DNA of 62,884 nucleotides from Candidatus Daviesbacteria bacterium RIFCSPLOWO2_01_FULL_39_23 (GTDB lineage: Bacteria; Patescibacteriota; Microgenomatia; Daviesbacterales; UBA10151). Below, piece after piece: positions 2,215 to 54,683 of this stretch. The stretch's first letter is position 1. Each line of letters opens with the position of its first letter. Location: positions 1 to 62,884 of the forward strand of contig MFDN01000003.1 of the NCBI GenBank assembly GCA_001776935.1. Reading direction: 5' to 3'. A program made the position numbers and the translations under genes. The notes below the pieces were generated by a model that was given only the letters and a program-made list of their open reading frames with translations, was not told where the DNA came from and searched no databases.

Positions 2215-2424
2215 TTAAATAGGTTTGCCGGCTAAGCCGTATAGTAGAAGATCTCTTACAAAACCAATTGACTGAATCGGCCAGGATAGGATAACGCTAT
2301 AAAACCCGGGTGATAAAAAAGATAAAAACGGCCAGCGGTAATAAAGGGCAAAAGCGATTGCAAATATAAAACCAAGCATAAAATAAACAATTGCAATACT
2401 TGAGACTATATTTGATCTTTTCAT
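2215..2424 (-). CDS. small two-TM membrane protein
   Basis: 69 aa, two long hydrophobic helices; start overlaps gyrA stop by 1 nt (TAATG). Confidence 0.45.
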   Translation of the reverse strand: MKRSNIVSSIAIVYFMLGFIFAIAFALYYRWPFLSFLSPGFYSVILSWPIQSIGFVRDLLLYGLAGKPI

Positions 2425-5072
2425 TAAGTTGTTTCTTTGGATGAAACCACTGTTGCGGCAGCCACTTTCTCACCGGGTCTTACCCTCATTAAGATTACAC
2501 CTTGAGTTTGCCGCTGTAATGTGGGAACTTCTGCCAGGTTCATCTTTATGAGTTGTCCTTTAGTTGAAGTCATAACTAAGGTATCCATATTTTCATTTAA
2601 AGCCTGGGCTGTGACAATGGGGCCGGTTTTAGCAGTAACTTGGGCCGCTTTTACGCCTTGTCCTCCTCTGCCCTGTCTGCTCCATGCAGAAAACTTGGTT
2701 TTTTTACCTAATCCGTTTTCCATAATAACCAAAAGTGTTTCCTCGTCGCTTTGAACAGTATTTAAAGAAACCACTTCGTCTTTGCCGGTAAGCCTTATGC
2801 CTCTTACTCCTGAGGTGTCCCTGTGGGTTGGTTTGACCTGGGCTTCCGTAAAGCGAATGGATTTCCCGTCTTTTGAAACAATAATCAAATCATCTTTGCC
2901 GCCTGTTGCAGCCACCCAACCAAGCTCGTCTCCTGAATCCAACTTTATAGCAGTCAGGCCATTTTTGCGGATATTGGCATATTCTTCCAGGCTCGTTTTT
3001 TTGACTGTGCCTTTTTTGGTACACATAAAGAAGTATTTAGCGCTTTCACCTTTTTGGCGGGTGGTTAAAACTGCCGTTATTTTTTCTCCCTGTTCAACAT
3101 TTATTAAATTAACAACAGCCTGTCCTTTGGCAGTCCGCTGGGTTTCCGGAATTTCCCAAACCTTAATTTGAAAAACTCTTCCTTTATCCGTAAAAAATAA
3201 AATATTGTCATGTGTTTGAGTATAAAAGATATGGGAAACAGCATCTGTTTCTTTGGTGGAAATACCCATAACTCCTTTTCCGCCTCTGCCTTGCGTCCTG
3301 AAAGAATGCGGAGACTGGCGCTTGATATAACCTCCTTCGGTTATGGTGGCGATCGTTACTTCATTCGGCACTAGATCTTCTTCTGAAAACTCCCCTACTT
3401 TTTGTTTATAAACGCGGGTTCTGCGTTCGTCTGCATATTTTTCCTTAATCCTGATAAGTTCGTCTTTTATAACCTTTAAAATTTTCTCTGGGTGTGCCAG
3501 CAGATCTTCTAAATATGTAATTGTTTCCCGTACCATCTTAAGCTCATCGTCAATTTTTTGCCTCTCTAATGCTGCAAGCCGCCTAAGCTGCATATCCAAA
3601 ATTGCCACGGATTGAATTTCTGTTAATTTAAACTTTTCCATTAAATTCTGTTTGGCAGTATCTGCGTCTTTGGATTTTTTAATGATTTCTATTACTGCAT
3701 CAATATTATCTACTGCTATTTTTAATCCTTCTAAAATGTGTTCTCTTGCTTTTGCTTCCGAGAGTTCAAATTCTGAACGCCGTCTGACAACTACTTGTCT
3801 GTGGCGGATAAATTCTTCCAGGATATGTTTTAAAGTTAAAAGGTGCGGTACACCGTCTGAAAGGGCAACTAAATTAACATTAAAAACAGACTGCATTGCA
3901 GTATGCTTATAAAGGTTATTTAAAAGGGATTGGGGTTTGGCATCCCGTTTCAAATCGAAAACAATTCTAACCATCTGTTTTCTGTCGGATTCATCGCGCA
4001 AATCCGCAACACCTTCCAGTTTTTTGTCTTTTACCAAATCTGCAATTTTAGCAATTAAAGTGGCTTTATTAACCTGATAAGGCAGTTCGGAAACTATAAT
4101 CTGCATTTTTCCGGCAGCTGTTTCATCTATTTCCGCTTTTGCCCGCATCACAATTCTTCCTTTGCCTGTACCGTATGCTGCCAAAATTTCTGTTTGGTCG
4201 TAAATAGAAGCACCTGTTGGAAAGTCCGGACCTTTCACAAATTGCACCAGATCTTCAACGGTGGTAGTGGAGTGGAAGCTATCAGTTTTCAGTATCGCTT
4301 CGCTTGCCTTCGGCTCGCCTCGATCCGGCGGAGCGGGCGTGGCTCCGCTGTCAGCTGTCAGACTTTCTGAATTTTCTGACGACTGACGACTGACGACTGA
4401 CGACTCTTTCTCCGGATGTTCTATCATATAAACCAACGCATCGCAGACTTCTCCCAAATTATGAGGCGGGATTTGAGTGGCCATACCCACAGCAATACCG
4501 GAAGCGCCGTTTAAAAGTAAATTCGGGATTACAGAAGGCAAAAGTACCGGTTCTTGCGTAGTGCCGGAGTAATTATCTATAAATTCTACTGTATTTTTAT
4601 TGATATCCCGAAGCAGTTCTTCGGAAATTGCAGAAAGACGGGCTTCGGTATAACGCATGGCAGCCGGAGAATCGCCGTCAATTGAACCGAAATTTCCCTG
4701 CCCGTCCACCAGCATATATCTCATGGAAAAATTTTGGGCCATTCTGACCATAGCTTCATAAACAGGGGCATCCCCGTGCGGGTGGAAATTCTTTAACACT
4801 TCTCCGACAACTGCTGCGCTTTTTTGAAAACGCGAAGTGTGATGCAGGCCCTGCTGATGCATGGCATAGATAATTCTTCGTTGGACCGGCTTTAAGCCGT
4901 CCCGGACATCAGGTAGCGCCCGGGATACAATAACAGACATGGCGTAGTCGAGGTACGACTTTTTCATTTCATCAATGATGGGAATTAATTGAATTTTGCC
5001 TATATTCATGCGGTTTTTAAACAAAAATTGAGCTTGCAGCTCAGATTTAATTATACCTTTTTTTGATCTCAA
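2424..5072 (-). CDS. gyrA: DNA gyrase subunit A
   Basis: [36 protein letters not shown] active-site Tyr region, GPDFPTG, C-terminal repeat domain; more likely start MNIGKIQL at 5009. Confidence 0.95.
4270..4408 (-). repeat. in-frame ~46-codon insert in gyrA: MITE-derived GC-rich part plus (CTGACGA)n word hairpin
   Basis: Extra peptide [47 protein letters not shown] between conserved IEHPE and [17 protein letters not shown]; DNA shares CAGCGGAGCC and GAGGCGAGCCGAAGG strings with MITE 46680-46792. Confidence 0.65.
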
Positions 5073-5097: not shown

Positions 5098-5712
5098 CTA
5101 GCGGTGATCGTAGAAAAACTTTACCTGGTCTTTGGGTAATCCCAGCTTTTGGTATCTTCTTAAAACTTCTTTTTTTGGTAAGTTTTTCCAGGATTTTTTT
5201 GTGAGGGTGATAAATTCCCTTATCTCGTGTGGGAAAATTATCCAGGCTTTCGTTTTACAAGCAAAAAAGTCAGGAATAATAACTGAATGTGGTTTAAGAA
5301 ATAGCGATGCAGTTTCCACTTTTTTGGCGCCCAATTTTTGCAGGTACTTTTTAACTTCTAAAAATGTTTTACCAGAATCCGTTACATCGTCAAAAAGAAG
5401 GACAGTTTTATTTTTAACAATAACACTAACAGGTAAGCTTTGTTCCAAAATTAACTCAGGGGCAGTTTGTCCGATACCTGAATATAATTTAGCCTTAACA
5501 GAGGCTAGATTATCGGTATCCAAAAAATCAGCTAAAGTCCTGCTCCAGGTCCAGCCGCCTTTGGCTATGGATATCAGCCAATCATATTTTCTTTCGCTTT
5601 TTAAAATTTGTTTGCCCAGTTCAAATATCAGTTTTCCCATTTCTTCCCAAGAAGGAGCAATATAGGAAATATCTTCCCTAAAATTAACTTCCTCAAATCT
5701 TAATTTGCTCAT
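5098..5712 (-). CDS. phosphoribosyltransferase (purine PRT-like)
   Basis: 204 aa; PRPP-binding motif [14 protein letters not shown]. Confidence 0.7.
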
Positions 5713-7259
5713 GCTAATTCAACCAATTTTTTTACCAGTTTTGGGAAGGGTAATCCTATTGCTTTGGCAGCTCTTGGGAATAGGGATTCGGAAGTAAAAC
5801 CCGGTATAGTATTTACTTCTAAAACATAAGGGATACCTTCTGATAATATGAAATCAATCCTTGAGTATTGGCCCAGATTTAACTTTCGGTGGATATTTTC
5901 AGCAATTTGCTGAACTTTCCTCTTTTGGTTTTCATTTAAAGATGGTGCTCCTACAATTTCTTTGGTGGCTCCGGAATATTTATTTTTATAGTCAAACCAC
6001 TTTCCTTCAGGAGGGACTATTTCGATAACCGGTAAGGCATTATTGTCTAAAATTGGTACAGTTACTTCTATTCCAGGTAAATATTTTTCAATGAATATTT
6101 CTGCCTTTGAATTGATTAAATCACGGAAATTTTTTCTTTTTAGATCACGCCTTGTTTTTAAAATGATAACTTCTTTGGAAGATCCGCCGTGAGAAGCTTT
6201 TAAAACAACAGGGAAACCAAACTCCATAATGTCGTTTTCGTTTTTGACAATTTTCCACCGGGAAGAAAGGATTTTATTTTTGTCGCAATATTTTTTAAAA
6301 GGAATTTTAAACCATCCCTGTTTAAAACCTTTGGGATCTCCGCCGACATAAGTTTTGCCGTTTTTCGCTAAAAATTCCTGTAATGATCCACCTTCTCCTT
6401 CTTCTCCGTGAAGCATGGGGAAAAATACGTCGTACAAGGGCAGCATCCTGCTTAAAGCAGAATATCCTTTTTTTAAATCAAATAATTTAACTTCAAAACC
6501 CTCCTCTTCCAGAGCTTTCTTAACCTCTTTAGCAGATATTAAAGATATTTTTCTTTCGGAGGATATGCCTCCGGTGATTACTAAAACTTTCTTTTTCATG
6601 TTGTATTTTTTTAGCCAATTTCTCCAAGCTTCTTTATTTCTATATAAAGGAAACTCTTTTTCTTCTACCCAGTGTAATTTATCAGGATCTTTGATGCAAT
6701 CTGTAAATAATTTTCCGTTTAGGTGATCTATCTCGTGTTGAAAAATCCTGGCTGTATATCCGCCATATTTTTCCTCCACAACTTTAGCTTCCCAATCCCG
6801 GATTGAATTTGAACTTACAAACCGGGATTGTAGCTTCAAAGCTTGTATTTTAATTAAGGCTGGACGGGAGACTATTCCGCAGACCCCGCCCCGCCCGCCA
6901 CGCAAGCCGAGCTTGCGAGGTGTTGCGGGCAGGCCGGTTGAATAACATCCCTCATACCACTCTTCTTGCCTTTTTGATTCCCAAACTATTTTAGGATTTA
7001 TAAATACGTTAATACCGCCTACTTGGCCTTTACCTTCTGCTTTTACATCAACCAAAATTATTCTTTTAAAAATACCAATCTGCGGCGCAGCCAGCCCTAC
7101 CATTAAAGGTTTGCTTTTATCTTTTTGCTCACCATAAGCAATCTGAAGCATTTTTTTGACAGTTTGTTGAAGTTCCGTTGAATTGAATTCCGTTTGGGGA
7201 ATTTCTTTTGAGATTTTTCTTAAAGCCGGATCAAAAGGCTTGACAGATTTAACTTGCAT
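5709..7259 (-). CDS. def-ddl: peptide deformylase fused to D-alanine--D-alanine ligase
   Basis: Def motifs GLAAPQIG, EGCYS, QHEIDHLNG in the N-half. ATP-grasp Ddl in the C-half (KKVLVITGGISSERKISL, YDVFFPMLHGEEGEGGSLQ, SRIDFIL, EVNTIPG). No stop between the halves. The ORF runs to 7361 but that part overlaps murD; MQVKS start at 7259 preferred. Confidence 0.8.
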   Translation of the reverse strand: MQVKSVKPFDPALRKISKEIPQTEFNSTELQQTVKKMLQIAYGEQKDKSKPLMVGLAAPQIGIFKRIILVDVKAEGKGQVGGINVFINPKIVWESKRQEEWYEGCYSTGLPATPRKLGLRGGRGGVCGIVSRPALIKIQALKLQSRFVSSNSIRDWEAKVVEEKYGGYTARIFQHEIDHLNGKLFTDCIKDPDKLHWVEEKEFPLYRNKEAWRNWLKKYNMKKKVLVITGGISSERKISLISAKEVKKALEEEGFEVKLFDLKKGYSALSRMLPLYDVFFPMLHGEEGEGGSLQEFLAKNGKTYVGGDPKGFKQGWFKIPFKKYCDKNKILSSRWKIVKNENDIMEFGFPVVLKASHGGSSKEVIILKTRRDLKRKNFRDLINSKAEIFIEKYLPGIEVTVPILDNNALPVIEIVPPEGKWFDYKNKYSGATKEIVGAPSLNENQKRKVQQIAENIHRKLNLGQYSRIDFILSEGIPYVLEVNTIPGFTSESLFPRAAKAIGLPFPKLVKKLVELA

Positions 7260-8610
7260 TAAATATTTTTTGGACAGCTTCGTTAAATTTTCTACCTCTG
7301 TCAAATTCATTTTGGAATAAATTAAATGAGGTTGCTCCGGGAGAAAATAAAATAGTGTCACCTTCTCTTGCTTCTTTTTTTATCTCTTTTAAAAGATTAA
7401 CTAAATCATTATAAAATCCTTTCCCGCCGATGATTGCAGTATCGCGAATATATTTGGCAATTTCTTTACTGGCATCTCCTTCCAAAAAGTAAACTAATTT
7501 AATACTTTTGGCTGTTTCAATGGCAGCAGCTACTTCGTGGTACTCCAATCCTTTATTCATGCCGCCGGCAATCAGGATTATATTTTTCTTATCAGATGAA
7601 GCTTCTATGGCACTTATAATTGATACCGGATTTGTAGCAGCAGAGTCATTTATAATTGTTATTCCGTTAAAATCGCCCATGGTTTGCATTCTAAACTCTC
7701 CCCCTTTAAAAGCGCTAAAAGCCTTAAGTGTAACTTTGTCATTAATACCTAAAGTTTCTGTGACTGTTAATGCAAGGGAATAATTTTCCCGATAAGCATA
7801 CCCCTTTAAAGGTAGATCTATATTTAGATATTCTTCCTCAAAATCTCCTATACAACTTGTAATAATTTTTGATTTTATTCCCGTAGTTAAATCTTTTGCA
7901 GCTCTTCTTCCGCCGCTATCACCGCAGGGAATAATTAAAAAATCTGTCCTAGTTTGATTTTTGGCAATCTCTTTTTTTGCTTCAATATATTCCTCCATAG
8001 AGGAGTGCCAATTAAGATGGTCCGGATAAATATTGGTAATTACCGCGACTTTTGGAGCAAAATTTTTATCCTTTAACGCTTGCAGCTGAAAAGAAGAAAT
8101 TTCCACCACTATCCAAGGATCTTCTTTCAGATATGGAATGGTATCTAATATACTTTTGCCGATGTTGCCTGCAAAAACAACTTTTTTTCCTGCTTCTTTT
8201 AATGCTTCATAAATTAGTGAAGCAGTTGTTGATTTGCCTTTGGTGCCGGTGACAGCGATGATCTTCTTTTGGTTTGCAAAATTTAAAAAGATAGAAAAAT
8301 CCGTTTCAATTTCCTTTCCTTGTTTTTTTGCATAGTCCATATAAGGATTACCGGGTTTAACAGAAGGATTTTGAATAATTAGATCCGCCCATTCAATATC
8401 TTCGTTTTTGTGGCCCCCTAATGAGTATTCAATATTGTGAATTTCTTTTAACTGTTCTAAAGAGGGTTTTAAAACATCTTCTGATTTTAAATCAGTGACT
8501 TTTACTTTTGCTCCTTGAGAAGCAAAAAATTTAGCACACCCCACCCCGCCTTGATTTAAACCTAAACCAAAAATAAGCACTTTTTTGTCTATAAATGTTT
8601 TATTTATCAT
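7249..8610 (-). CDS. murD: UDP-N-acetylmuramoylalanine--D-glutamate ligase
   Basis: 453 aa; N-terminal Rossmann VLIFGLGLNQGGVG, Mur-ligase P-loop GTKGKSTT. Confidence 0.9.
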   Translation of the reverse strand: MINKTFIDKKVLIFGLGLNQGGVGCAKFFASQGAKVKVTDLKSEDVLKPSLEQLKEIHNIEYSLGGHKNEDIEWADLIIQNPSVKPGNPYMDYAKKQGKEIETDFSIFLNFANQKKIIAVTGTKGKSTTASLIYEALKEAGKKVVFAGNIGKSILDTIPYLKEDPWIVVEISSFQLQALKDKNFAPKVAVITNIYPDHLNWHSSMEEYIEAKKEIAKNQTRTDFLIIPCGDSGGRRAAKDLTTGIKSKIITSCIGDFEEEYLNIDLPLKGYAYRENYSLALTVTETLGINDKVTLKAFSAFKGGEFRMQTMGDFNGITIINDSAATNPVSIISAIEASSDKKNIILIAGGMNKGLEYHEVAAAIETAKSIKLVYFLEGDASKEIAKYIRDTAIIGGKGFYNDLVNLLKEIKKEAREGDTILFSPGATSFNLFQNEFDRGRKFNEAVQKIFNAS

Positions 8611-12431: not shown

Positions 12432-12534
12432 GTCATTCTGAGTGACTAACGAAGAATCTCTTGCGTATGCAAGTACAGTAATGTAACTGACATAAAGTCA
12501 GAGATCCTTCGTCGCTACGCTCCTCAGGATGACA
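12432..12534. mobile_element. MITE-like element with GTCATTCTGAG / CTCAGGATGAC inverted termini
   Basis: Terminal inverted repeats read directly; internal GAAGAATCTC box and CTTGC-GTAT-GCAAG hairpin; related copies at 26964, 46680, 54584. Confidence 0.7.
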
Positions 12535-16648: not shown

Positions 16649-16727
16649 TAGAGACTAGTCGCTAGAGTCAAGAGTTGAGTAAGATTATTTGTTCTCCTAG
16701 ACTCTAGATTCTAGACTCTTGATTCTA
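16649..16727. repeat. word hairpin (TAGAGTC/GACTCTA words) overlapping holB 3' end
   Basis: Arms 16649-16680 and 16694-16727 are imperfectly complementary; the last holB codons (PKLESRV) are encoded by the right arm. Confidence 0.5.
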
Positions 16728-17413: not shown

Positions 17414-19120
17414 ATGCCCAACATAGCTGCCCAATCCCTGGAGGATATTCTTTTTAAACAAGGTTTTATAAGCGCTGATCAGCTTTCATCAATAAAGCTT
17501 GAAAGTATTAATTCCGGTCAGCCCGTAGAGAAACTTATTGCTGCGCATAATTTAGTGACAGCTGATAAGATGACCCAGGCAAAAGCGCAGCTTTTAAATG
17601 TGCCTTATATTCAGCTTGCAGGCCGGGCAATTGCAGCTGACGTTTTAAATTTGATTCCAGAGCCGGCTGCGCGCCGTTATCATATTATTCCGTTTGAAAA
17701 GAAAGATGATGAGATCTGGGTGGCAATGGCAGATCCTCTGGATATTCAGATTGCACAATTTATTGAAAAAAGAGCAGGACTTAGGGTTAAGCCGTTTCTT
17801 TCGCAAGTAGAGGATATTTTGAAGGCAATTTCTGAACAATACTCTCAAAACCTGACTTCAGAGGTGACTTCGGCTCTAAAGGAAGTCGAAGATATAAAGC
17901 CCGAAGAATCATTTCAAAATACCCCGGAGGTTTTACGTGAGGCGCCTGTTTCAAATATCATAGACCAGCTTCTGGAATATGCTATTAAAAGCCGCGCATC
18001 TGATATTCACATTGAACCTCAGGAGGACCGGACAAGGGTCAGGTACAGGATTGACGGAATTTTGCAGGAAAGAATACTTTTACCAAAAGGAGTGCATGAT
18101 GCTTTGGTCTCAAGGGTCAAGATTTTGTCTGTTTTAAAGATTGATGAGAAAAGACTCCCGCAGGACGGCAGGTTTACGTTTACTTTTGGGGATAATGTGG
18201 TGGATCTTCGTGTATCTACCGTACCCACTGTTTTTGGTGAAAAGGTGGTTTTGAGACTGCTTCCTAAATCAACGGCGGCTCCGACTTTTTTGGAATTAGG
18301 ACTGAGAGGCTCATCTTTAAAGAGTCTGGAAACTCAATTGCAAAGGCCGCACGGGATAATATTAATCTGCGGCCCGACAGGAAGCGGAAAAACCACAACC
18401 CTTTATTCAGTTTTGAGTAAGATTTCCACCACGAAAGTAAATATTGTCACTATTGAGGATCCTGTGGAATATCAAATCCCGGGTGTAAACCAGGTGCAGG
18501 CTAACACTTCTGCCGGGCTTACATTTGCATCAGCTCTAAGAAGCTTTCTGCGCCAGGATCCGAATATTATCATGGTCGGTGAGATACGTGATACTGAAAC
18601 AGCTGATTTGGCAATCCAGGCTGCTTTGACAGGCCATCAGGTTTTTTCAACGGTTCATACCAACTCTTCGGCAGGCGCTCCTCCCCGGCTTTTGGATATG
18701 GGGATAGAGCCTTTTTTGCTGATCTCTGCTTTAAATGCGGTTGTCGGGCAAAGAGTTGTGCGTAAAATTTGTCCGCACTGCCGGATGGAACTTACAGCCC
18801 CGCCTGAGGTCGTAGAGGATATTAAATCCGTTTTGGGCAAAATCTTGTCTGCTTCGTCTGCGCCCGGTTCTTTAAAGCTTTATAAAGGAAAAGGATGTTC
18901 GTATTGCGCAAACACCGGTTATTTGGGGAGAGTAGGCATTTTTGAAGTGCTTTCTCTTTCCGAAAGTATTGCGAAATTAGTGCTGGAGCATGCTTCTTCA
19001 GGAAAAATCGAGGAAGCGGCCGTAAACCAGGGCATGGTGACAATGAAGCAGGATGGATATTTGAAAGTTTTGGAAGGAGTGACAACTATGGAGGAAGTGC
19101 TCAGGGTAGCCCAAGACTAG
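17414..19120 (+). CDS. pilB: type IV pilus assembly ATPase PilB (GspE family)
   Basis: 568 aa; N-terminal GspE_N-like domain, Walker A GPTGSGKTTT, tetracysteine CPHC...CSYC. Confidence 0.9.
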   Translation: MPNIAAQSLEDILFKQGFISADQLSSIKLESINSGQPVEKLIAAHNLVTADKMTQAKAQLLNVPYIQLAGRAIAADVLNLIPEPAARRYHIIPFEKKDDEIWVAMADPLDIQIAQFIEKRAGLRVKPFLSQVEDILKAISEQYSQNLTSEVTSALKEVEDIKPEESFQNTPEVLREAPVSNIIDQLLEYAIKSRASDIHIEPQEDRTRVRYRIDGILQERILLPKGVHDALVSRVKILSVLKIDEKRLPQDGRFTFTFGDNVVDLRVSTVPTVFGEKVVLRLLPKSTAAPTFLELGLRGSSLKSLETQLQRPHGIILICGPTGSGKTTTLYSVLSKISTTKVNIVTIEDPVEYQIPGVNQVQANTSAGLTFASALRSFLRQDPNIIMVGEIRDTETADLAIQAALTGHQVFSTVHTNSSAGAPPRLLDMGIEPFLLISALNAVVGQRVVRKICPHCRMELTAPPEVVEDIKSVLGKILSASSAPGSLKLYKGKGCSYCANTGYLGRVGIFEVLSLSESIAKLVLEHASSGKIEEAAVNQGMVTMKQDGYLKVLEGVTTMEEVLRVAQD

Positions 19121-19189
19121 CTGTCAGTCATCAGACTTCAGCTATCAGACTTAAAAAATCTGACGACTGAAGACTGAAAGCTGATGACT
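19119..19189. repeat. word hairpin (CTGA-GACT words) between pilB and pilT
   Basis: AGTCATCAG...CTGATGACT outer 9-bp stem, AAAAAA loop; the right arm TCTGACGACTGAAGACTGAAAGCTGATGACT recurs in gyrA and recG. Confidence 0.6.
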
Positions 19190-19195
19190 ATTGTT

Positions 19196-23266: not shown

Positions 23267-23308
23267 AATAATTTACAATTTACAATGTACAATTTACAAT
23301 GAAGGCAG

Positions 23309-25946: not shown

Positions 25947-26952
25947 CCAATTAACAGTTAACAATGAACAGTTAACAAGTAAAAATCAGTTACTGGACAG
26001 AATATTACGATTTGCAATTGATATTATTAGTCTTGTTGATAAACTTCCCCGGAGTCCTGCAGGTATGAATATTGCAAATCAGCTGGTTAGGTCGGCAACA
26101 TCAATCGGAGCTAATACAGAAGAAGCCCAAGGAGCTTCTTCAAGGAGAGATTTCATAAATAAAATGCATATTGCTTTAAAAGAGGCAAAAGAAAGCAAAT
26201 ATTGGCTTAAGCTTATCCGGCTCTCTCACCTGCAGTCCAGCTATTCAGTGGAGCGCGAACTAAAGGAAGCGGATGAGCTTTGTGCGATTTTTTCTGTTAT
26301 TGTGAAGAAAGCAAAGGTTAACTTGTTAAATGTTAAATCTCAAATGTTAAATGCTAATGGTCAGTCGCTTTTGGAGGTCACAGTGGCTGTGGCTATTGGC
26401 ACCCTGGTGGTGGCGGCTTTAACTTTTGCAACTATTTTTTCTTTAAGAAATGCTAATTTTGCCAAAAACTCTGCCCAGGCCACAAAACTGGCTCAGGAAG
26501 GGATAGAAAGGGTCAGAAGCAGCAGAGACCGAAATCAATGCATAGAAGGTTTGACTAATGTTAACTCCTGGAACGGTAGCACGGATTGTTCTGCCGTATC
26601 TGGATCAGGATCGATTTGGACTTATCCTATATCAGGTGACTGCGACAAACCTGATTTACCTCAAGCAGGTTTTTGCTATTTTAAGGTTAATTCAACTACC
26701 GGACAATTAACAAATATTGGTTTTTCGTTTACACCAACATCCTCTGTCCCATTACCTGCTCAGGCAGAAGGTATTCCTACAACTAACCCGGTATTTAAGA
26801 GGGTAATTCTTCTGTCAGATGATCTTAATCATGATAAAAATTTTACTAACGATGATTATCAAAACCAAAAAGAAGTGACAGTTATTGTTACCTGGAATGA
26901 TTTTGCAGGGACTCATGAATCAAGGTTGACTACTATATTAAGAAAACTATGA
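25936..26952 (+). CDS. four-helix-bundle (23S rRNA IVS-type) domain in frame with a minor pilin-like protein
   Basis: 4HB family signature QLVRSATSIGANTEEAQGASSRRDFINKMHIALKEAKESKYWLKLI (25936 to ~26315; SD AGGAGG upstream). No stop before the internal ATG 26344, which begins MLNANG|QSLLEVTVAVAIGTLVV. Confidence 0.75.
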   Translation: MQSNQLTVNNEQLTSKNQLLDRILRFAIDIISLVDKLPRSPAGMNIANQLVRSATSIGANTEEAQGASSRRDFINKMHIALKEAKESKYWLKLIRLSHLQSSYSVERELKEADELCAIFSVIVKKAKVNLLNVKSQMLNANGQSLLEVTVAVAIGTLVVAALTFATIFSLRNANFAKNSAQATKLAQEGIERVRSSRDRNQCIEGLTNVNSWNGSTDCSAVSGSGSIWTYPISGDCDKPDLPQAGFCYFKVNSTTGQLTNIGFSFTPTSSVPLPAQAEGIPTTNPVFKRVILLSDDLNHDKNFTNDDYQNQKEVTVIVTWNDFAGTHESRLTTILRKL

Positions 26953-26963
26953 GAAGATTTGAT

Positions 26964-27050
26964 TGTCATTCTGAACGAAGTGAAGAATCTCTGACGAATG
27001 TCAGACCCACATTCGTGGGAGATCCTTCGGCTAATCGCCTCAGGATGACA
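26964..27050. mobile_element. MITE-like element (TGTCATTCTGA...TCAGGATGACA)
   Basis: Inverted termini, GAAGAATCTC box, central CCCAC-ATTC-GTGGG hairpin; the last 30 nt are identical to the end of the copy at 54584-54683. Confidence 0.7.
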
Positions 27051-27710
27051 AAGGAACAAGCTCAGGATGAGGGGAGAGAAAATGGTTTTACCCTGGCTGA
27101 AATTATGGTGGTGATGGCTATTACTGCTGTTGTCGGAACAATTTTGGTTTTAATATTTACCAATACGTTAAGAGGCAGCGGTAAATCGCAAATACTGGCG
27201 GTTATAAAGCAGAATGGGCAGTCGGTTTTAGGCAATATTGATAAAACAGTAAGGGATGCAGATAATATAATTTGTCCGACTGGTATTTCTCCTAGTGGCA
27301 GCATTTTAGTTGTTGTCAAAGACGGTGTTTATACAAGGTATCGGATGGTTCTGCCGGATTCATCTGATCCCGTGCCGCTATCCTGCAATGAAAACGGCTG
27401 TATTGCCTGGGATCAGCCGTCTAAGGAGAATGACCTTGATCCTAATACCGGACAGTTGAAATCAGATTCTCAATTTATTAATGATGTTTGCCTGCCAAAT
27501 TCTTTAATGAGTCAAGCTGCGGTTTTAACTGATACCAATTCTCAAACCGGAGTCTCGGTAGAAGATGGGTTTTTTACCCGGAATAAATCTGCAGGATATA
27601 AGGATCAGCTGACGATTGAATTTAAGTTAGGCCCGGGTGCCGGAGTGCCTCAAGCAATCAAAGAACAAATTGATCCGGTGAAATTTCAGACAACAGTGCA
27701 GCTGCGGTAA
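27045..27710 (+). CDS. minor pilin-like protein (PilW-like size)
   Basis: MTKEQAQDEGRENG|FTLAEIMVVMAITAVV; the ATG is supplied by the MITE terminus; the ORF is open from 26949 through the MITE. Confidence 0.75.
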   Translation: MTKEQAQDEGRENGFTLAEIMVVMAITAVVGTILVLIFTNTLRGSGKSQILAVIKQNGQSVLGNIDKTVRDADNIICPTGISPSGSILVVVKDGVYTRYRMVLPDSSDPVPLSCNENGCIAWDQPSKENDLDPNTGQLKSDSQFINDVCLPNSLMSQAAVLTDTNSQTGVSVEDGFFTRNKSAGYKDQLTIEFKLGPGAGVPQAIKEQIDPVKFQTTVQLR

Positions 27711-28601: not shown

Positions 28602-29027
28602 ATGTTAAATGAAAAGGGTGTTTCTTTAATTGAGTCTTTGCTGGTTATTGTAGTGATAGGCTCGATATTATTTCTTATGGCAAATATTCCTAATGCGCTT
28701 CAGTTGGTTGGCAAGAGCAAACACATGAATTTAGCGCGGGAAATAGCCGTAAAACAAATTGAGGATAAAAGAGCAATAGATTATGCAGATATTGCCCTTG
28801 GCAGTTCTGCTGTTTCTGATTACCGCTTAGGTATGCTGCCCAGGGGAAGCGGCACAGTAACGGTGGGAGTGGAAGATGAGGAAGGAGAATGGGTAAACTG
28901 TGATGCCTCAATTTGTGCAAACGGAGAAGATGTGAAACAGCTAACAGTTACAGTTAACTGGCATGATAATAAACCTCAAACAATAACATTAAAAACTATG
29001 ATCGGAGAAGGAGGGATAAACCAGTAA
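28602..29027 (+). CDS. minor pilin-like protein
   Basis: MLNEKG|VSLIESLLVIVVIGSILF with Glu+5. Confidence 0.75.
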   Translation: MLNEKGVSLIESLLVIVVIGSILFLMANIPNALQLVGKSKHMNLAREIAVKQIEDKRAIDYADIALGSSAVSDYRLGMLPRGSGTVTVGVEDEEGEWVNCDASICANGEDVKQLTVTVNWHDNKPQTITLKTMIGEGGINQ

Positions 29028-29056
29028 AGTGCAAAGTGCAAAGTGCAAAGTGCAAA
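29026..29056 (+). repeat. perfect 7-nt tandem repeat (AAAGTGC)x4 spanning a stop/start junction
   Basis: Read directly; gives GTG codons at 29029, 29036, 29043, 29050. Confidence 0.9.
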
Positions 29057-29631
29057 ATTTAAAAAACCGGGGACTAACCTTAATAGAAATTTTGGTGGCT
29101 ATGGGGATTGCGACAGTTGCCGGAATGCTGCTTCTTGTAATTATAGTAAACAGCGCCGGATTGTTTCAGGGACAATCGTCAAAAGTACAGACCGGCCTGA
29201 ATGTTAATGACGCTCTCTCTAAAATCCGGGCAAGCGCAAAGCAGGCGAGCGCTATAGCCAACTCTTATACCGACGGTCAAACTGTATATACAACCGGCTC
29301 AGACCAGCTTGTTTTAAAAGTCGCATCTGTTGACGGGGAAGGCAATATTATCGAGAATTTATCTGATTATTTTGTGTTTTTTAAAGATCAAAGCTATTTG
29401 CGTTTTAAAGTGTTTCCGGATCCTTCAAGCTTTAGAAAAGTTAGTAATGAGGTGCTTACTGCTTCTTTGGAAAGTGTGGTTTTTAATTACTTCAACCTGG
29501 ATAATCCCCCGCTTGAGGTAAATCCCTCCCAGGCTTCCAAAGTGCGTATTAGTATAAGTTTAAGACAAAGAATTGGAACCAGAGTTGAAATTAATACTGC
29601 AACATCGGAGGCAAATTTGAGAAATGATTAA
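29029..29631 (+). CDS. minor pilin-like protein
   Basis: Leader encoded by the heptamer repeat, then NLKNRG|LTLIEILVAMGIATVAG. Confidence 0.75.
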   Translation: MQSAKCKVQNLKNRGLTLIEILVAMGIATVAGMLLLVIIVNSAGLFQGQSSKVQTGLNVNDALSKIRASAKQASAIANSYTDGQTVYTTGSDQLVLKVASVDGEGNIIENLSDYFVFFKDQSYLRFKVFPDPSSFRKVSNEVLTASLESVVFNYFNLDNPPLEVNPSQASKVRISISLRQRIGTRVEINTATSEANLRND

Positions 29632-33122: not shown

Positions 33123-33818
33123 ATGAAGAAAGAAATAAGTAAATTTTATCAAACCTATAAGCTGTTTATTTTTCCTTCTGCTGTTGCGCTTTCAAGCTTG
33201 TTTTTAATTGCATTTGCAATAATACCCCAGACAATTAAATTAATGGATAATCAGAAAGCAGCGCAGGAGTATATGAATAAGTCTAATTTATTGGAGGCAA
33301 AAGCGCAGACTTTAGAAGACTATAACGGAGAAGATCTATCTCAAAAAATACAAATTGTAATGGGGGCTTTACCCGAAGATAAGGATTTTGGAAGTATTTT
33401 GGGCATACTTCAGCAGGCAACAGCAGAGTCAGGTTATATTATCAGTTCAATATCTTTTGGTCATGCCGGTAAATTAGGGAATGCAGAAAGTTATGAGGTA
33501 AGGTTGACTGTTAAAGGTGCTAAAGATTTACTTAAGCTCTTAATAAATAATTTGGAAAATGCGCCGCGTCTTGTCAGGATTAATTCGATGGATGTTGGGT
33601 CGGTTCAGAGTGCCGGAGGAGCAGATATATCTTTAATATTGGAAGTTTTGTATTCGCGTCTGCCCAGCGCTCTCGGATCCATAGACTCAGCTTTGCCGTC
33701 CCTTACTCAAAAAGACGAAGAAGTTTTAAACACTCTTGAAAGGATAAGTCAAAAAGCTCCGACAACTTCATCTTCCTTTGTCCAATCCCCACGGGGTAAA
33801 ACTAATCCTTTTGAGTGA
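33123..33818 (+). CDS. pilO: PilO-like bitopic protein
   Basis: Single N-terminal TM, coiled coil, position after pilN. Confidence 0.65.
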   Translation: MKKEISKFYQTYKLFIFPSAVALSSLFLIAFAIIPQTIKLMDNQKAAQEYMNKSNLLEAKAQTLEDYNGEDLSQKIQIVMGALPEDKDFGSILGILQQATAESGYIISSISFGHAGKLGNAESYEVRLTVKGAKDLLKLLINNLENAPRLVRINSMDVGSVQSAGGADISLILEVLYSRLPSALGSIDSALPSLTQKDEEVLNTLERISQKAPTTSSSFVQSPRGKTNPFE

Positions 33819-34638
33819 TTTTTGCTTTATCTCGATAAAATCCCGACTGCGAAGTCGAGGGTTTTCCAAAACCGGACGAAGTCCGATCGAGAGAAGATAC
33901 CCCGACCGTTAGGTCGTGGGTAGATTCATTTGCTAAATCAGGCCTGACTTTTTTAGTTTTTTCAAGTGATTTTTTTAACCGCCATTTTTTTATTTCTGCA
34001 TGGTTTCCGGAAAGTAAAACTTGGGGTACTTTTTTACCTTCGAATTCTTCGGGTCTTGTGTAATGCGGGTACTCCAATAAATTTTCGGAAAATGATTCAT
34101 CTTGTATGGCTTCGGGTTTTTCCAGTACACCGGGAATAAGTCTTGTAATTGAATCAACTATTGCCATAGCTGGGATCTCGCCGCCCGTTAAGACATAATC
34201 TCCAATGGAGATTTCCTCGTCAACGTAATTTTCTATAAACCGCTGGTCAACCCCTTCGTAATGGCCGCAGACAATGATTAGATGGGCAAGTTTTGATAAC
34301 TTCCGGGCTTGCGCCTGCTTGTAGGGTTTTCCAGATGCTGAAGTAAGGATTGTGTACGGCTTTTTGCTTTTAGCTGTTAGCTTTTGGCTGCGAATAGCTA
34401 AAAGCGAATTGCTAATAGCCCGTTTTAATGCTTTTGCCAAAATATCTGCCCGCAAAATCATCCCTGCTCCCCCGCTGTACGGCCTATCGTCAACTATCTG
34501 ATGTTTGCCTTCTCCAAAATCCCGGAGGTTTATAAGTTCAAATTCGACAAGACCTTTTTTTTGAGCTCTTTTTAAGATAGAAGAATTTAAAATGGGTTCA
34601 AAGACTTGGGGAAAAAGAGTGATAATGGAAATCTTCAT
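33802..34638 (-). CDS. trmD: tRNA (guanine37-N1)-methyltransferase with internal insert and ~40-aa C-terminal extension
   Basis: MKISIITLFPQVFEPIL, DDRPYSGGAGMIL, GHYEGVDQR, IGDYVLTGGE. Confidence 0.9.
   Translation of the reverse strand: MKISIITLFPQVFEPILNSSILKRAQKKGLVEFELINLRDFGEGKHQIVDDRPYSGGAGMILRADILAKALKRAISNSLLAIRSQKLTAKSKKPYTILTSASGKPYKQAQARKLSKLAHLIIVCGHYEGVDQRFIENYVDEEISIGDYVLTGGEIPAMAIVDSITRLIPGVLEKPEAIQDESFSENLLEYPHYTRPEEFEGKKVPQVLLSGNHAEIKKWRLKKSLEKTKKVRPDLANESTHDLTVGVSSLDRTSSGFGKPSTSQSGFYRDKAKITQKD
33844..33916. repeat. three GC-rich mini hairpins (CGACT-GCGA-AGTCG, CGGAC-GAA-GTCCG, CGACC-GTTA-GGTCG)
   Basis: Read directly at 33844-33857, 33873-33885, 33903-33916; they encode the trmD tail. 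Confidence 0.6.
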
Positions 34639-37112: not shown

Positions 37113-39203
37113 TCAATCAGGCATCACTTCTGATGCAATATCCTGTAATTTTGCCTTGATTAGTGGGTGTTTGTCAAGAGCAGGATCTTTTGCAAGCAAA
37201 TCCCGTGCTGCCTGTTTGGTTTTTTCAAGGAGGGAAATATTAGAAAAAGATGCAATTTTAAATTCAAATCTTCCGGATTGTGCGCTTCCAAAGATTTGTC
37301 CGCTGCCTCTTATTTTTAAATCAAGCTCTGCAAGTTTTAAGCCGTCAAAAGTTTTTTCTAAGAATTTCAGCCGCCTTGAATCATCGCCTGAGGTGTTTGA
37401 AGTATAAAGCAGACAATAGGATTCTTTTGTTCCCCTGCCAACTCTGCCCCTGAGCTGATGCAGTTGGGCAAGGCCGAAACGTTCTGCTCCTTCGATCACA
37501 ATAATGGTGGCATTTGGATTATCCATTCCCACTTCCACTACAGAAGTGGAGACTAAAATTTGGATTTTGCCTTGGCGGAAATCGTGGGTAATTTCTTCTT
37601 TTTCCTTACCTTTTAACCTGCCATGAAGTAAGCCCAGCTTAAAATTTGGAAAGACTTTTTGTAGATTTTCAAATTCAACTTTTGCGGCTTTGACTGTCTT
37701 TAGTGTTTCTGAGGCCTCGATTAAAGGCGTGATGATATAGGCCTGATCGCCGCCTGCAACTTTTTTGGCAATAAATTTATAAGAATCCAGTCTTTTTCTT
37801 TCAGGTACCAGATAAGTTTTGACAATTTGCCGGCCCTTTGGAAGTTCATCAATCACCGACATATCCAAATCGCCGTATAGAGTTAAGGCGACAGTCCGCG
37901 GAATTGGTGTGGCAGTCATTGTTAAAAAATGCGGCACTTTAGCTCTTTTACGAAGAAAGGTTCTTTGCTCGACACCGAAGCGCTGCTGTTCGTCTACTAT
38001 GATAAGCCCGACATTTTCAATACTTAATTTAGGCGAGAGTAAGGCATGAGTTCCAATTGTAATATCGGGAATTGTAGTATGTATTATGTATTTAGTATTA
38101 ATGGTTTTTTGTTTTTTTCCATAATACTTGCTACTTAATACTTGATACTTTCGGCTTCCCGTATAAATTCCAACCGTCACCTCAAATGGTGATAGAAGCT
38201 TGGTTAAAGTCTCAAAATGTTGGAATGCTAAAATTTCCGTTGGAGCCATAAAAAGTGTCCGGAGATTATTTTTGTGCACCAAATATGCGGCAATTGCGGC
38301 AACTACTGTTTTCCCTGAACCGACTTCCCCCTGTATCAGTCTGTTCATCGGCTGGTTTTTTACAAGGTTCCGGAGAATTTCTTTTAATACTTTGTGCTGG
38401 GCAGAAGTCAATTTAAAGGGAAGCTTACCGATAAAATCCCTAAGGTCTGATTGCTTGATCTTTAAAGGTTCTACGAGAGGTTTTCTGCGCCATGCAAGTC
38501 TTGCTTTTTGGGTGGCTAAAGAGACGTAAAATAGCTCATCAAAGCTTAGTCTTTCTCTGCTTTTTTCCAGATCTTCCCAGGTTTTGGGGAAGTGGATTTG
38601 TTCTAAAGCAGAAGTAAGGCAAATCATCGTGCTGCGGATATCATCCGGCAAAGGGTCCTGTATTTTACCTGTAATTTGCGGCAGAAGTTTGGTAATTTTT
38701 GCACGCAGCCATTTGGATGAAAGTCCCTCAGTTTCCGGATAGATTGGTACTAATCTTCCCGTATGTATTGTCTGACGACTGATAGCTGAAGACTGAAGAC
38801 TCTCTATTTTTTCCCATCTTGGGGCAATGATAGAGAGTTTGTTTTTATATTTACTGATTTTTCCTGAAACCTGCAACCTGTCGCCTGTTTGGATTTGTTT
38901 TGTCAGCCATGAAGAGTTAAACCATGTTAATTCTATGGGTGAGGTGCCGTCATTAAAAATTGCTTTGGTGATAATTTTGCGGGATCTTGTATAAATATTG
39001 GAAATTGACCAGATTTCCCCCTGCAGGGTTACACTTTCCCCTATTTGTGCATCCAGTGCAGATGTATTATTCGAAAAATCATCATACCTGAAAGGAAAAT
39101 GATAAATTAAATCTTCTACAGTATTTAGGTTCAGCTTATTAAGCTTGTATAAAAGCGATGGGCCAATACCTGAGATGGCGGCAAGTGAAGAATTAAGATC
39201 CAT
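37113..39203 (-). CDS. recG: ATP-dependent DNA helicase RecG
   Basis: Walker A GEVGSGKT, DEQQRFG, GTHALL, QLRGRVGRG; the ORF is open to 39314 but MDLNSSLAAISGIG is the likely start. Confidence 0.9.
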   Translation of the reverse strand: MDLNSSLAAISGIGPSLLYKLNKLNLNTVEDLIYHFPFRYDDFSNNTSALDAQIGESVTLQGEIWSISNIYTRSRKIITKAIFNDGTSPIELTWFNSSWLTKQIQTGDRLQVSGKISKYKNKLSIIAPRWEKIESLQSSAISRQTIHTGRLVPIYPETEGLSSKWLRAKITKLLPQITGKIQDPLPDDIRSTMICLTSALEQIHFPKTWEDLEKSRERLSFDELFYVSLATQKARLAWRRKPLVEPLKIKQSDLRDFIGKLPFKLTSAQHKVLKEILRNLVKNQPMNRLIQGEVGSGKTVVAAIAAYLVHKNNLRTLFMAPTEILAFQHFETLTKLLSPFEVTVGIYTGSRKYQVLSSKYYGKKQKTINTKYIIHTTIPDITIGTHALLSPKLSIENVGLIIVDEQQRFGVEQRTFLRKRAKVPHFLTMTATPIPRTVALTLYGDLDMSVIDELPKGRQIVKTYLVPERKRLDSYKFIAKKVAGGDQAYIITPLIEASETLKTVKAAKVEFENLQKVFPNFKLGLLHGRLKGKEKEEITHDFRQGKIQILVSTSVVEVGMDNPNATIIVIEGAERFGLAQLHQLRGRVGRGTKESYCLLYTSNTSGDDSRRLKFLEKTFDGLKLAELDLKIRGSGQIFGSAQSGRFEFKIASFSNISLLEKTKQAARDLLAKDPALDKHPLIKAKLQDIASEVMPD
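38074..38148. repeat. AT-rich word hairpin (GTAT/ATAC words) translated inside recG
   Basis: Arms 38074-38104 and 38119-38148 around a T-rich loop; encodes YQVLSSKYYGKKQKTINTKYIIHTT. Confidence 0.55.
38771..38802. repeat. half copy of the TCTGACGACTGA word element inside recG
   Basis: TCTGACGACTGATAGCTGAAGACTGAAGACTC, near-identical to the right arm of the 19119-19189 hairpin; encodes ESLQSSAISRQT. Confidence 0.6.
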
Positions 39204-39339
39204 GAGGGAATTATATATCAGTATTCCTCCGCACGCATTTAAAATGCGGTTAGAAGCGGCAGAAGAGAAAAAAGGATAATGGCTATTCCGGCAACAACAG
39301 ACAAAATTATCCAAAAAATTCTAAACTTCGGGTTATACA

Positions 39340-46679: not shown

Positions 46680-48173
<1,494 letters not shown>

Positions 48174-53592: not shown

Positions 53593-54582
53593 ATGGGTGA
53601 AAAAAATCCTGATTTGAGCATAGTAATTTTAAGTTACAACGTCCGGGATTTATTACTAAATTGCCTGGAGTCAATTTTCAAAAATATTACAAAAGAAGAT
53701 AATTGGCAGGTTATTGTGGTGGATAATGCTTCAACAGACGGGTCAGTGGAGGCAGTAAAGGAAAAGTATAAGGTAGCTGAAATAAATTCAGGGATTCTTC
53801 GCTTCGCTCAGAATGACAAAAAAGGTGCTCGGAATGACAACGTTGTAGAACTAATAGAAAATAAGGAGAATTTGGGATTTGCGGCCGGGAATAACGAAGG
53901 TGTAAAATGCGCTAAAGCTCCTGTTATTTTATTTTTAAATCCTGATACTATTATTGTCGGCGATGCCATACAAAAATCTTTGGAGGTTTTACTTTCAAAT
54001 CCGGATTTAGGAGCTTTGACCTGTAAGGTGGAACTGCCTGATGGAAGATTAGACTACTCCTGCCACAGGGGCTTCCCTACTCCCTGGAATTCATTTTGTT
54101 ATTTTGGGGGAATTTCCAAAAGATTTAGAAAATCCCCAATTTTCTCTGGATACACCGCCAGTTATTTGGATATGACTAGTCCGCACGTTGTAGATTGCAT
54201 CAGCGGAACTTTTTTTATGGTCAGAAAAATAGCCGGAGAGCAGGTTGGTTTTTGGGATAAGGATTATTTTTTTAACGGCGAAGATATAGAATTTTGCTAC
54301 CGTTTAAAAGAAAAAGGATGGCAGATTTATTATTATCCGTTGGTTAAAATAATTCATTATAAAGGTTCATCTTCCGGGCTTTGGCGTACATCGGGTATGA
54401 AAGTGCAAAAGACGACAAAACTAACTTCTGCTTCTCATGCTGCTTCTGCTATGAAATTATTTTATAAAAAACACTATTATGTTAAATACCCTCCCTTGTT
54501 TCGGGATTTTGTGCTTTGGGGAATATTGCTTTTGGAAAAATACAGGAAGTTTAAAATATTAACTGGATTAAGGTATGAGTAA
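53593..54582 (+). CDS. family 2 glycosyltransferase (rhamnosyltransferase-like)
   Basis: LSIVILSYN, VVDNASTDGS, NLGFAAGNN, NPD, GEDIEFCYR. Confidence 0.85.
   Translation: MGEKNPDLSIVILSYNVRDLLLNCLESIFKNITKEDNWQVIVVDNASTDGSVEAVKEKYKVAEINSGILRFAQNDKKGARNDNVVELIENKENLGFAAGNNEGVKCAKAPVILFLNPDTIIVGDAIQKSLEVLLSNPDLGALTCKVELPDGRLDYSCHRGFPTPWNSFCYFGGISKRFRKSPIFSGYTASYLDMTSPHVVDCISGTFFMVRKIAGEQVGFWDKDYFFNGEDIEFCYRLKEKGWQIYYYPLVKIIHYKGSSSGLWRTSGMKVQKTTKLTSASHAASAMKLFYKKHYYVKYPPLFRDFVLWGILLLEKYRKFKILTGLRYE
53791..53843. repeat. MITE end fragments translated inside the GT2 gene
   Basis: GGGATTCTTCGCTTCGCTCAGAATGACA plus GCTCGGAATGACA; encodes GILRFAQNDKKGARNDN. Confidence 0.65.
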
Positions 54583-54583
54583 A

Positions 54584-54683
54584 TGTCATTCTGAGGTCGC
54601 CACAGTGACAGAAGAATCTCTTGCGAATGCAAGGTACCTCAAACAAGTTGAGAGATCCTTCGGCTAATCGCCTCAGGATGACA
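54584..54683. mobile_element. MITE-like element (TGTCATTCTGAGG...CCTCAGGATGACA)
   Basis: Inverted termini, GAAGAATCTC box, CTTGC-GAAT-GCAAG hairpin. Confidence 0.7.

Follow-up and report, generated by a model that had tools for sequence, protein, structure and literature searches.

To our knowledge, selfish palindromes carried in frame within genes have so far been regarded as a peculiarity of Rickettsia, and heptamer repeats (STRR) and small dispersed repeats (SDR) were reportedly described in cyanobacteria by Elhai and co-workers in 2008. According to the summary given in PMC10969869, the Rickettsia palindromic elements (RPE) are dispersed palindromic repeats that lie in frame inside many Rickettsia genes (Ogata et al. 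2000, 2002). A short account of the cyanobacterial STRR and SDR repeats is available in PMC5861425, and repetitive extragenic palindromes (REP) and REPIN elements are mobilised by RAYT (Y1) transposases (PMC3116915). Here, we analysed the gyrase subunit A (GyrA) gene in a stretch of 62,884 nucleotides, called the window below, from Candidatus Daviesbacteria, a Microgenomates lineage of the candidate phyla radiation (CPR). This gyrA gene is read on the minus strand and carries an in-frame insert, which we compare with the systems above. Our literature search returned no description of such in-frame palindromic elements in CPR.

The open reading frame (ORF) 2424-5072 was identified as GyrA by Pfam (DNA_topoisoIV, 1.4e-153, and DNA_gyraseA_C), and the database protein cluster of the window GyrA holds an 861-aa form that starts at 5009. 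The insert sits between MIEHPE and TTVEDL. The distance from QIPPHNL to GPDFPT is 87 aa in the window GyrA; it is 39 aa in Oscillibacter, in Thermoanaerobacterium, in the other CPR, and at some 20 loci of Daviesbacteria. Therefore, the insert comprises 48 codons (4266-4409). A first inspection of the letters alone (the sequence-only reading) had given about 46 residues at 4270-4408, which was essentially right. It was also right that the segment is absent from other GyrA proteins, because no counterpart was found in Firmicutes, in other CPR, or in any matched gyrase or topoisomerase IV chain of the PDB. The alignment to Bacillus subtilis GyrA (4DDQ) splits at the insert, with residues 200 and 249 of the query corresponding to residues 203 and 204 of 4DDQ, and that to Staphylococcus aureus GyrA (6FQM) splits between residues 202 and 204. 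Both alignments break cleanly, with one conserved block on each side of the break. The GC content of the insert is 56-61%, compared with 39% for the window, and its residues are 31% Ser and Thr, 27% charged, and 12.5% hydrophobic.

Comparison with related sequences indicates that the GyrA insert is a single copy of a dispersed imperfect palindrome of 80-130 nt, designated class A, and not two joined pieces. In order, the element is made up of four AGTCGTC heptamers and an A-rich loop, then GTCTGACAGCTGACAGCG and a central hairpin that is optional, and lastly GCGAAGCGATACTGAARACTGATAGCT. Alignment A4 takes in ten copies from end to end and has 55 invariant columns. The 5' half in this alignment is laid out as A-(AGTCGTC)x4-AG, the A-rich loop, and AGTCTGAMAGCTGASAGCG; the 3' half consists of the optional central hairpin AAGCCACGCC-RAA-GGCGGGCG followed by AAGCGRKWCTGAARACTGATAGCT. 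The last 16 nt (4277-4292) form an imperfect inverted repeat of the 5' array, and when AGTCGTCAGTCGTCAG is set beside the reverse-complemented 3' end, AGCTATCAGTCTTCAG, 12 of 16 positions match, which may represent terminal inverted repeats (A4). Tandem Repeats Finder (TRF) detected (CTGACGA)x4.3 at 4376-4405 and (GCTGTCA)x2.1 at 4347-4361. The coding strand folds into one nested palindrome (RNA fold, -61.1 kcal/mol, z = -4.8, 0 of 200 shuffles as good), and the fold calculated with DNA parameters has z = -2.2. These results agree with the earlier description of the segment as repetitive palindromic DNA. Five of the element's six frames contain stop codons, and gyrA uses the one that does not. 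The 31-mers of the heptamer array are 70-100 times commoner than the flanking sequence in metagenomes.

The family was found by a scan for three CTGACGA units, in which the matched Daviesbacteria loci aligned to the whole insert, beyond the array. The leuS copy L140 is 87% identical to the gyrA copy L002 along 79 nt (E = 2e-22); even without its heptamer array, the window insert retains matches to L140 (E = 5e-8 and 6e-7). A scan with the conserved right end of the element gave 10 matches in 185,579 species genomes, all of them in metagenome-assembled genomes (MAGs) of the Daviesbacteria type, and 9 matches in metagenome contigs; the same scan of viral contigs gave no match. Three copies (L004, L186, L192) are present in one genome, CAYQAW, and at least two (L084, L140) in another, STD1_94. 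Nearly all class-A copies are intragenic with a common orientation and frame, and in-frame copies are located in at least eight unrelated, mostly essential genes, whose identities were taken from Pfam (Table 1). The common peptide is SSVVSRQSS..SLxADSEA..LKTDS, and its right part is more fully (T/K)A(D/E)SEA..(PKAGEA)ILKTDS; an optional K precedes the peptide. The shared frame needs no design, because one in six frames of the element is stop-free. The leuS (L192) and PEGA (L186) copies of CAYQAW both carry an extra block, TTCCCCTTCGGGGGCCCAC, within the array; therefore, the element was copied after it had gained that block. The DnaX of L197, a metagenome contig, contains two different in-frame repeats, a class-A copy after the P-loop region and a GTCATTG-type MITE (miniature inverted-repeat transposable element; VIVGEAKQS...SPRDDN) in the C-terminal half. 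When a set of 5.8 billion proteins was searched with a profile built from eight insert peptides, nothing was found at E <= 10, the query being too short and too low in complexity.

The heptamer array alone was rejected as a family marker because the (CTGACGA)x3 scan is not lineage-specific. Arrays of (CTGACGA)n are spread over many phyla (loci L066-L185, for example L082 at ~1420-1545), among them Acidobacteriota, Chloroflexota, Bacteroidota, Deltaproteobacteria, Streptomyces, cyanobacteria, and Planctomycetota; they are mostly intergenic, and other heptamer arrays often accompany them. In one Deltaproteobacteria MAG, a word hairpin encloses a GC-rich core, a design similar to that of the Daviesbacteria element. 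Many MAGs titled 'uncultured Gammaproteobacteria bacterium isolate binchicken_...' (L004, L007, L010, L013, L014, and others) encode GyrA proteins 80-87% identical to those of Daviesbacteria and carry the same repeats; their Gammaproteobacteria label looks wrong.

The sequence-only reading had described the insert as a MITE fragment joined to a separate word hairpin. The similarity to a MITE is real, but the two-piece composition is not supported as stated, because one element family accounts for the heptamer array, for the GCTGTCA arm, and for the sequence flanking the GC-rich part (A4). The window contains at least five copies of a MITE family with the ends GTCATYCTGAG...CTCAGRATGAC. The formal alignment of the insert with the MITE at 46681 gave a modest but significant match of 36 columns (GCCCGCTCCGCCGGAT--CGAGGCGAGCCGAAGG against GCCCGCTTCGCC-AATTCAGCGAGGCGAG-CGAAGG), which is the best non-heptamer tile of the window; its score of 29 was reached by 2 of 2000 dinucleotide shuffles. 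A scan for the MITE ends with two mismatches allowed found 13 sites in the window but none within 4266-4409, and the MITE core (GAAGRATCTC...GAGATYCTTC) could not be aligned to the insert, the best local match being the GC-rich module with a GAAGG flank only. The MITE-like part is confined to 24 extra bases (GCCCGCTCCGCCGGATCGAGGCGA, ~4314-4338) in the central hairpin, which are present in the window copy and in none of the nine other copies of A4. Similarly, about 25 extra bases at GAGCGGAGCC^GAAGG are found in the MITE at 46681 only, while three of the four full-length MITE copies of the window are without them (alignment A5). The extra bases are private to one copy in each alignment; therefore, the shared sequence is a third entity, a GC-rich mini-hairpin. 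The near-matches between insert and MITE arise because this nested module is shared and the host flanks, (C/G)AGCGGAGCC and GAAGG, are similar.

The GC module follows the pattern CCGCT(T/C)CGC(C)-loop-(G)CGAGGCGAG, and the strict form of this pattern turns up 8 times in 1.0 Mb of DNA from Daviesbacteria, against 0 times in 30 block shuffles. The module also occurs in a second GyrA loop (AKAEIDET^GKMQIIV) at L040 (10838-10867), L019 (3888-3916), and L022 (10754-10782), where it forms a 30-nt perfect GC-rich hairpin that is in frame (GSPRSAGGA) and oriented opposite to that of the window insert. Further in-frame copies are found in the def gene of L007 and within an L026 ORF, and L026, L027, and L021 each have the module between heptamer words. 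The module also forms isolated GC islands in genomes of low GC content from WOR-3, Elusimicrobiota, Bacteroidota, Ignavibacteria, and Saccharibacteria; the genome-wide scan was swamped by high-GC genomes, and only 18 low-GC loci were informative.

We compared the insertion site among the 120 closest GyrA proteins (77-100% identity). As the sequence-only reading had proposed to check, copies free of the insert exist among close relatives: 36 of the 120 are insert-free or longer by two residues at most, and the others have up to 57 extra residues. Extra residues are of varied type, and no one peptide is conserved across the orthologues. The site holds at least five unrelated repeat families among the relatives (Table 1), and some inserts have no detectable structure. 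Most of the structured inserts fold with z values of -3 to -6.4 (range -2.8 to -6.4). Several of these repeat families have paralogues outside gyrA, including the window sequence at 16650-16726. The type of insert is independent of backbone similarity, since 19 GyrA proteins with another insert or none are nearer to that of the window than any bearer of class A, at distances that are barely resolved. Every allele seen has a length that is a multiple of three and is stop-free. Some Daviesbacteria GyrA proteins (P0044, P0055, P0057, P0073, P0077, P0087, and P0094) are 1263-1346 aa long and have the intein domains PF14528 and PF14890, alongside the loop insert or in place of it.

We consider it likely that the insert is a dispersed palindromic repeat that spreads within Daviesbacteria genomes and is translated in a tolerant GyrA loop, and that the nested GC module was acquired later. 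A small palindromic repeat of class A would copy itself within these genomes, and most landings would be intragenic in a gene-dense genome. Intragenic copies would persist only if they are read in the one stop-free frame and sit in a loop that can take additional residues, such as the loop of the window copy, which corresponds to the junction of residues 203/204 of B. subtilis GyrA. The ribosome would read through the insert to give a serine-rich, charged, hydrophilic peptide of 48 residues, which is probably disordered and may be a passive passenger. A GC-rich hairpin module of 24 nt may later have entered the central hairpin of the element, and the same module may have entered the MITE at 46681. 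The spread may proceed by copy-and-paste via a hairpin or single-strand intermediate. Since target-site duplications were not seen, the most plausible route would be through a Y1/HUH-type enzyme or through template switching. A Y1/IS200-like transposase ORF is located near gyrA (Table 1), and its best NCBIfam match is the REP-associated tyrosine transposase, with 47 bits against a cut-off of 80. Its flanks (736-752 and 1496-1532) have the hairpin CCACCTTCCAGGTGG on both sides and two tandem copies of CAGGTGGGATGGCA, and no class-A or GC-module sequence was found in them. A link between this gene and the class-A element is speculative.

Several points weigh against this explanation. The term "mobile" is drawn from the distribution of copies, with no transposase identified. 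The junctions of 12 copies, inspected by eye, showed no direct repeat, target-site duplication, or target motif, and all that was recognised was an A-rich base preceding AGTC and a T following AGC. Translation of the insert is predicted indirectly, because the frame is unbroken in every allele; the lack of intein domains and of an Rfam match is consistent with it, and the listed metatranscriptome runs contained no words matching the insert region. The alignment breaks are the sole basis on which the insert would be exposed at the molecular surface, and an AlphaFold2 model of the N-terminal half of GyrA, made with 40 close homologues, had a pLDDT (predicted local distance difference test) of 47.5, which is too poor for mapping. 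The GC-module pattern was set after copies had been seen. The neighbour-joining tree and the nearest-neighbour analysis of GyrA without the insert were star-like; therefore, repeated insertion at a hot spot is inseparable from one old insertion followed by recombination and turnover. Moreover, nearly all GyrA inserts start with K and end with F-x-S, whatever repeat is inside, which suggests an older small loop that the repeats later entered.

Daviesbacteria GyrA may have had one old K...F-x-S loop whose interior was remodelled in place by slippage, by hairpin-driven template switching, or by gene conversion or recombination with other repeat copies, and there would have been no repeated transposition into gyrA. 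We regard this as possible but rather unlikely. The non-empty alleles nearly all begin with K (AAA/AAG) and end with (D/N/S)xF(Q/S/K/R/H)S, and the end codons AAA and TTT are mutually complementary. Short alleles (KEPTDSFKS and KGEGSYES) and decayed or composite ones (P0021, P0018, P0011, and P0025) also occur, which speaks for such remodelling. Since the host motif GCGAAGCG and the left half of the GC module are reverse complements of each other, an inverted duplication is possible (A4, A5); however, the module also stands by itself in AT-rich coding sequence where the GCGAAGCG motif is lacking. Full-length copies are present in seven other genes and at intergenic sites, and therefore, the class-A sequence did not originate at gyrA. 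In addition, insert-free and filled alleles are interspersed at equal backbone identity. Remodelling of an old loop addresses the route by which gyrA acquired its contents, not the identity of the insert, and it is compatible with the dispersed-repeat explanation.

It is improbable that the insert is a selected, lineage-specific domain or linker of GyrA, which might modulate movements of the DNA gate and tower or the binding of a partner. Inserts with an open frame in every allele seen and a uniformly hydrophilic composition are kept in about two thirds of the relatives, as a functional segment would be. However, the length (0-57 aa) and sequence are unconserved in close relatives, one third of which lack an insert, and unrelated proteins contain the same peptide. 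Survivorship accounts for the open frame, since only one of the six frames is open.

Removal or skipping of the insert before GyrA matures, as an intein, as an intron, or by translational bypassing over an mRNA hairpin, is very improbable. The mRNA folds into a structure of very high stability (-61 kcal/mol, z = -4.8), and true inteins are found elsewhere in some Daviesbacteria GyrA proteins. However, 48 residues are far too few for an intein, and Pfam finds no intein domains in the window GyrA. The candidates intein, intron, and known RNA family were rejected, since Pfam gave only DNA_topoisoIV and DNA_gyraseA_C and Rfam gave no match at E <= 1. The stop-free alleles in multiples of three would be unnecessary in untranslated DNA, and no stop codon or matched take-off and landing codons of the gene-60 type were read in the sequence. 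A repeat-induced misassembly or binning error that put foreign repeat DNA into gyrA is scarcely credible: de Bruijn contigs do break at the heptamer array, whose 31-mers are repeated in high copy (k-mer depth rises there from ~17 to 1100-1800), but more than 20 public groundwater and soil runs contain the insert sequence, contigs from four independent runs cover 4100-4402 and 4377-4600 with zero differences and with breaks only within the array, the protein cluster is found on 5 contigs, and dozens of independent assemblies of relatives have in-frame inserts at the same codon. The insert is therefore not an assembly artefact, because independent runs give the identical sequence on both sides.

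Table 1. Features of the gyrA insert, related repeats, and host genes (positions refer to the window; other loci are given by label)
Feature	Position or loci	Strand	Details	Basis
gyrA ORF	2424-5072	minus	longest ORF 882 aa, TTG start	Pfam
Whole GyrA insert	4266-4409	minus	48 codons, KESSVV...SFHST	insert-free GyrA
Class-A element proper	4277-4405	minus	AGTCGTC...GATAGCT, 129 nt	A4
5' arm	4376-4405	minus	(AGTCGTC)x4.3, encodes SSVVSRQSS	TRF
A-rich loop	4362-4375	minus	separates heptamer array from internal arm	fold, A4
Internal arm	4345-4361	minus	GTCTGACAGCTGACAGC, pairs with last heptamers; "word hairpin" of the sequence-only reading	TRF, fold, A4
Nested GC-rich mini-hairpin	~4314-4338	minus	GCCCGCTCCGCC-GGAT-CGAGGCGAG, encodes PAPPDRGE	A4
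3' part	4277-4313	minus	right side of central hairpin and GCGAAGCGATACTGAAAACTGATAGCT	fold, A4
Intergenic class-A relative	19119-19190	minus	heptamer arms, without GC core; best match to insert within window	
Class-A-related heptamer stretch in recG	~38771-38803	minus	ESLQSSAISRQT, in frame, wedge region	
MITE copy	12432-12533			
MITE copy	26965-27049		full; in 5' part of prepilin ORF 26949-27710	
Intergenic MITE	46681-46791	plus	GTCATCCTGAG...CGTTCAGAATGAC, hosts GC module at 46698-46723	
MITE copy	53790-53838		partial; in frame in family-2 glycosyltransferase (GT2) gene 53593-54582, SGILRFAQNDKKGARNDN	
MITE copy	54585-54682			
Y1/IS200-like transposase ORF	781-1455	minus	~1 kb downstream of gyrA	
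GyrA loop: class-A elements	window, L002, L004, L012, L045			
GyrA loop: GAGTC-heptamer hairpins	L005, L006, L007, L040		resemble window 16650-16726	
GyrA loop: complete MITEs	L008, L010, L021, L039		GTCATTGCGAG...CTCGCAATGAC	
GyrA loop: another MITE	L035			
GyrA loop: other heptamer hairpins	L009, L059, L037			
Class-A host: GyrA	window, L002, L004, L012, L045		same orientation and frame	Pfam
Class-A host: GyrB	L084			Pfam
Class-A host: LeuRS	L140, L189, L192, L194		between APFAPHITEELWQ and SIHQQSWP	Pfam
Class-A host: DnaX	L195-L197		between AKMVNCE and YPCNKC	Pfam
Class-A host: TsaD	L200			Pfam
Class-A host: RF1	L202			Pfam
Class-A host: uL4	L193, L199		at N-terminus	Pfam
Class-A host: PEGA-domain protein	L186			Pfam

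In-frame repeats were also observed in other genes of the window. TrmD (ORF 33802-34638, minus strand) contains an in-frame word hairpin (34359-34419) with GCTTTTA/GCTAAAA arms, which adds 14 residues compared with S. aureus TrmD (3KY7). In the helicase domain of RecG (ORF 37113-39314, minus strand), an in-frame heptamer hairpin (38073-38150) adds 11 residues compared with Thermotoga maritima RecG (1GM5); the second in-frame hairpin segment of RecG, in the wedge region, spans 38772-38801. Seven-base tandem arrays of about four copies, each with a different word, are located at 23270-23300, 25951-25977, 26324-26357, and 29026-29056, either a short way upstream of the leader-peptide coding part of type IV pilin-like genes or within it; one of the arrays is (AAAGTGC)x4.4 in the prepilin leader of ORF 29029-29631. 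Slippage in these arrays would shift the frame, and therefore, phase variation at the pilin-like genes is possible. The true start codon of the prepilin ORF 26949-27710 is probably downstream of its MITE. The ORF 5709-7361 (minus strand) is an unusual fusion of a peptide deformylase domain with D-Ala-D-Ala ligase, and it is the deformylase part of L007 that carries the GC mini-hairpin in frame.

We tentatively suggest that Daviesbacteria, and perhaps the wider CPR, harbour a three-level hierarchy of tiny mobile DNAs, although the case for it is still short of persuasive. A hairpin module of ~24-30 nt would enter heptamer-armed palindromes of 80-130 nt or MITEs, which would in turn enter essential genes in frame, with certain protein loops serving as recurrent landing sites, for example the GyrA loop at the equivalents of B. 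subtilis residues 203 and 204. If this is true, the lineage-specific loops and low-complexity inserts of CPR housekeeping proteins would stem to a major extent from selfish DNA, and the 24-nt module would be among the smallest mobile DNA units known. Its presence in low-GC genomes of several other phyla would then point to a shared mobilisation mechanism. The nested module and the heptamer arms tie the class-A elements to poorly understood repeat classes of many phyla. In-frame palindromes in a reduced, host-dependent CPR lineage suggest that small, gene-dense genomes, in which intergenic landing sites are few, give rise to this behaviour generally, and they explain part of the puzzling extra loops in CPR housekeeping proteins. 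For annotation and phylogenetics, such segments should be treated as repeat DNA and not as homologous protein sequence. The copies may also serve as natural maps of permissive sites in GyrA, GyrB, LeuRS, DnaX, TsaD, RF1, and uL4.

Compared with classical MITEs, the class-A elements are likewise short palindromic repeats without coding capacity, and MITE members are also found in frame, in the GyrA loop (L008, L010, L021, and L039), in the GT2 gene of the window, and in the DnaX of L197. However, the gyrA insert has neither the terminal repeats of the MITE family nor a target-site duplication, and only the nested GC module is common to it and the MITE at 46681. The resemblance to REP and REPIN elements consists of short GC-rich hairpin repeats without target duplications and a RAYT-like Y1 gene ~1 kb from gyrA. 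In contrast, REPs are extragenic, whereas the Daviesbacteria copies are mostly intragenic, and the Y1 gene is below the NCBIfam cut-off and flanked by another hairpin, CCACCTTCCAGGTGG. The cyanobacterial STRR and SDR repeats share with the Daviesbacteria elements the tandem heptamer arrays that form hairpins and the repeats of ~20-30 nt nested in other repeats and in MITE-like elements. Consistent with this likeness, TRF detected many period-7 arrays in the window, and nesting was observed in A4, A5, L026, L027, and L021. They differ in lineage and sequence, and most of the Daviesbacteria copies found are predicted translated parts of housekeeping genes.

The closest system in behaviour is the RPE of Rickettsia, as the sequence-only reading had proposed, and the recurrence of the same element in unrelated host genes bears out this proposal. 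Both are dispersed palindromes of ~100-150 bp that lie in frame in unrelated, often essential genes of a reduced-genome, host-dependent bacterium, and both add a family-specific peptide to a host protein that apparently still functions. The Daviesbacteria element likewise forms a dispersed multi-copy family with a palindromic fold and with in-frame copies that have a conserved peptide. However, it belongs to CPR, one of its arms consists of tandem heptamers, it hosts smaller nested hairpin modules, and one GyrA loop has collected several repeat families. Sequence homology to RPE-1 to RPE-10 is not to be expected, and we liken it to RPE by behaviour, as an analogue and not as a member of that family. 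By this analogy, what is new is an RPE-like phenomenon in a new phylum, with a nested hierarchy and a recurrent landing loop.

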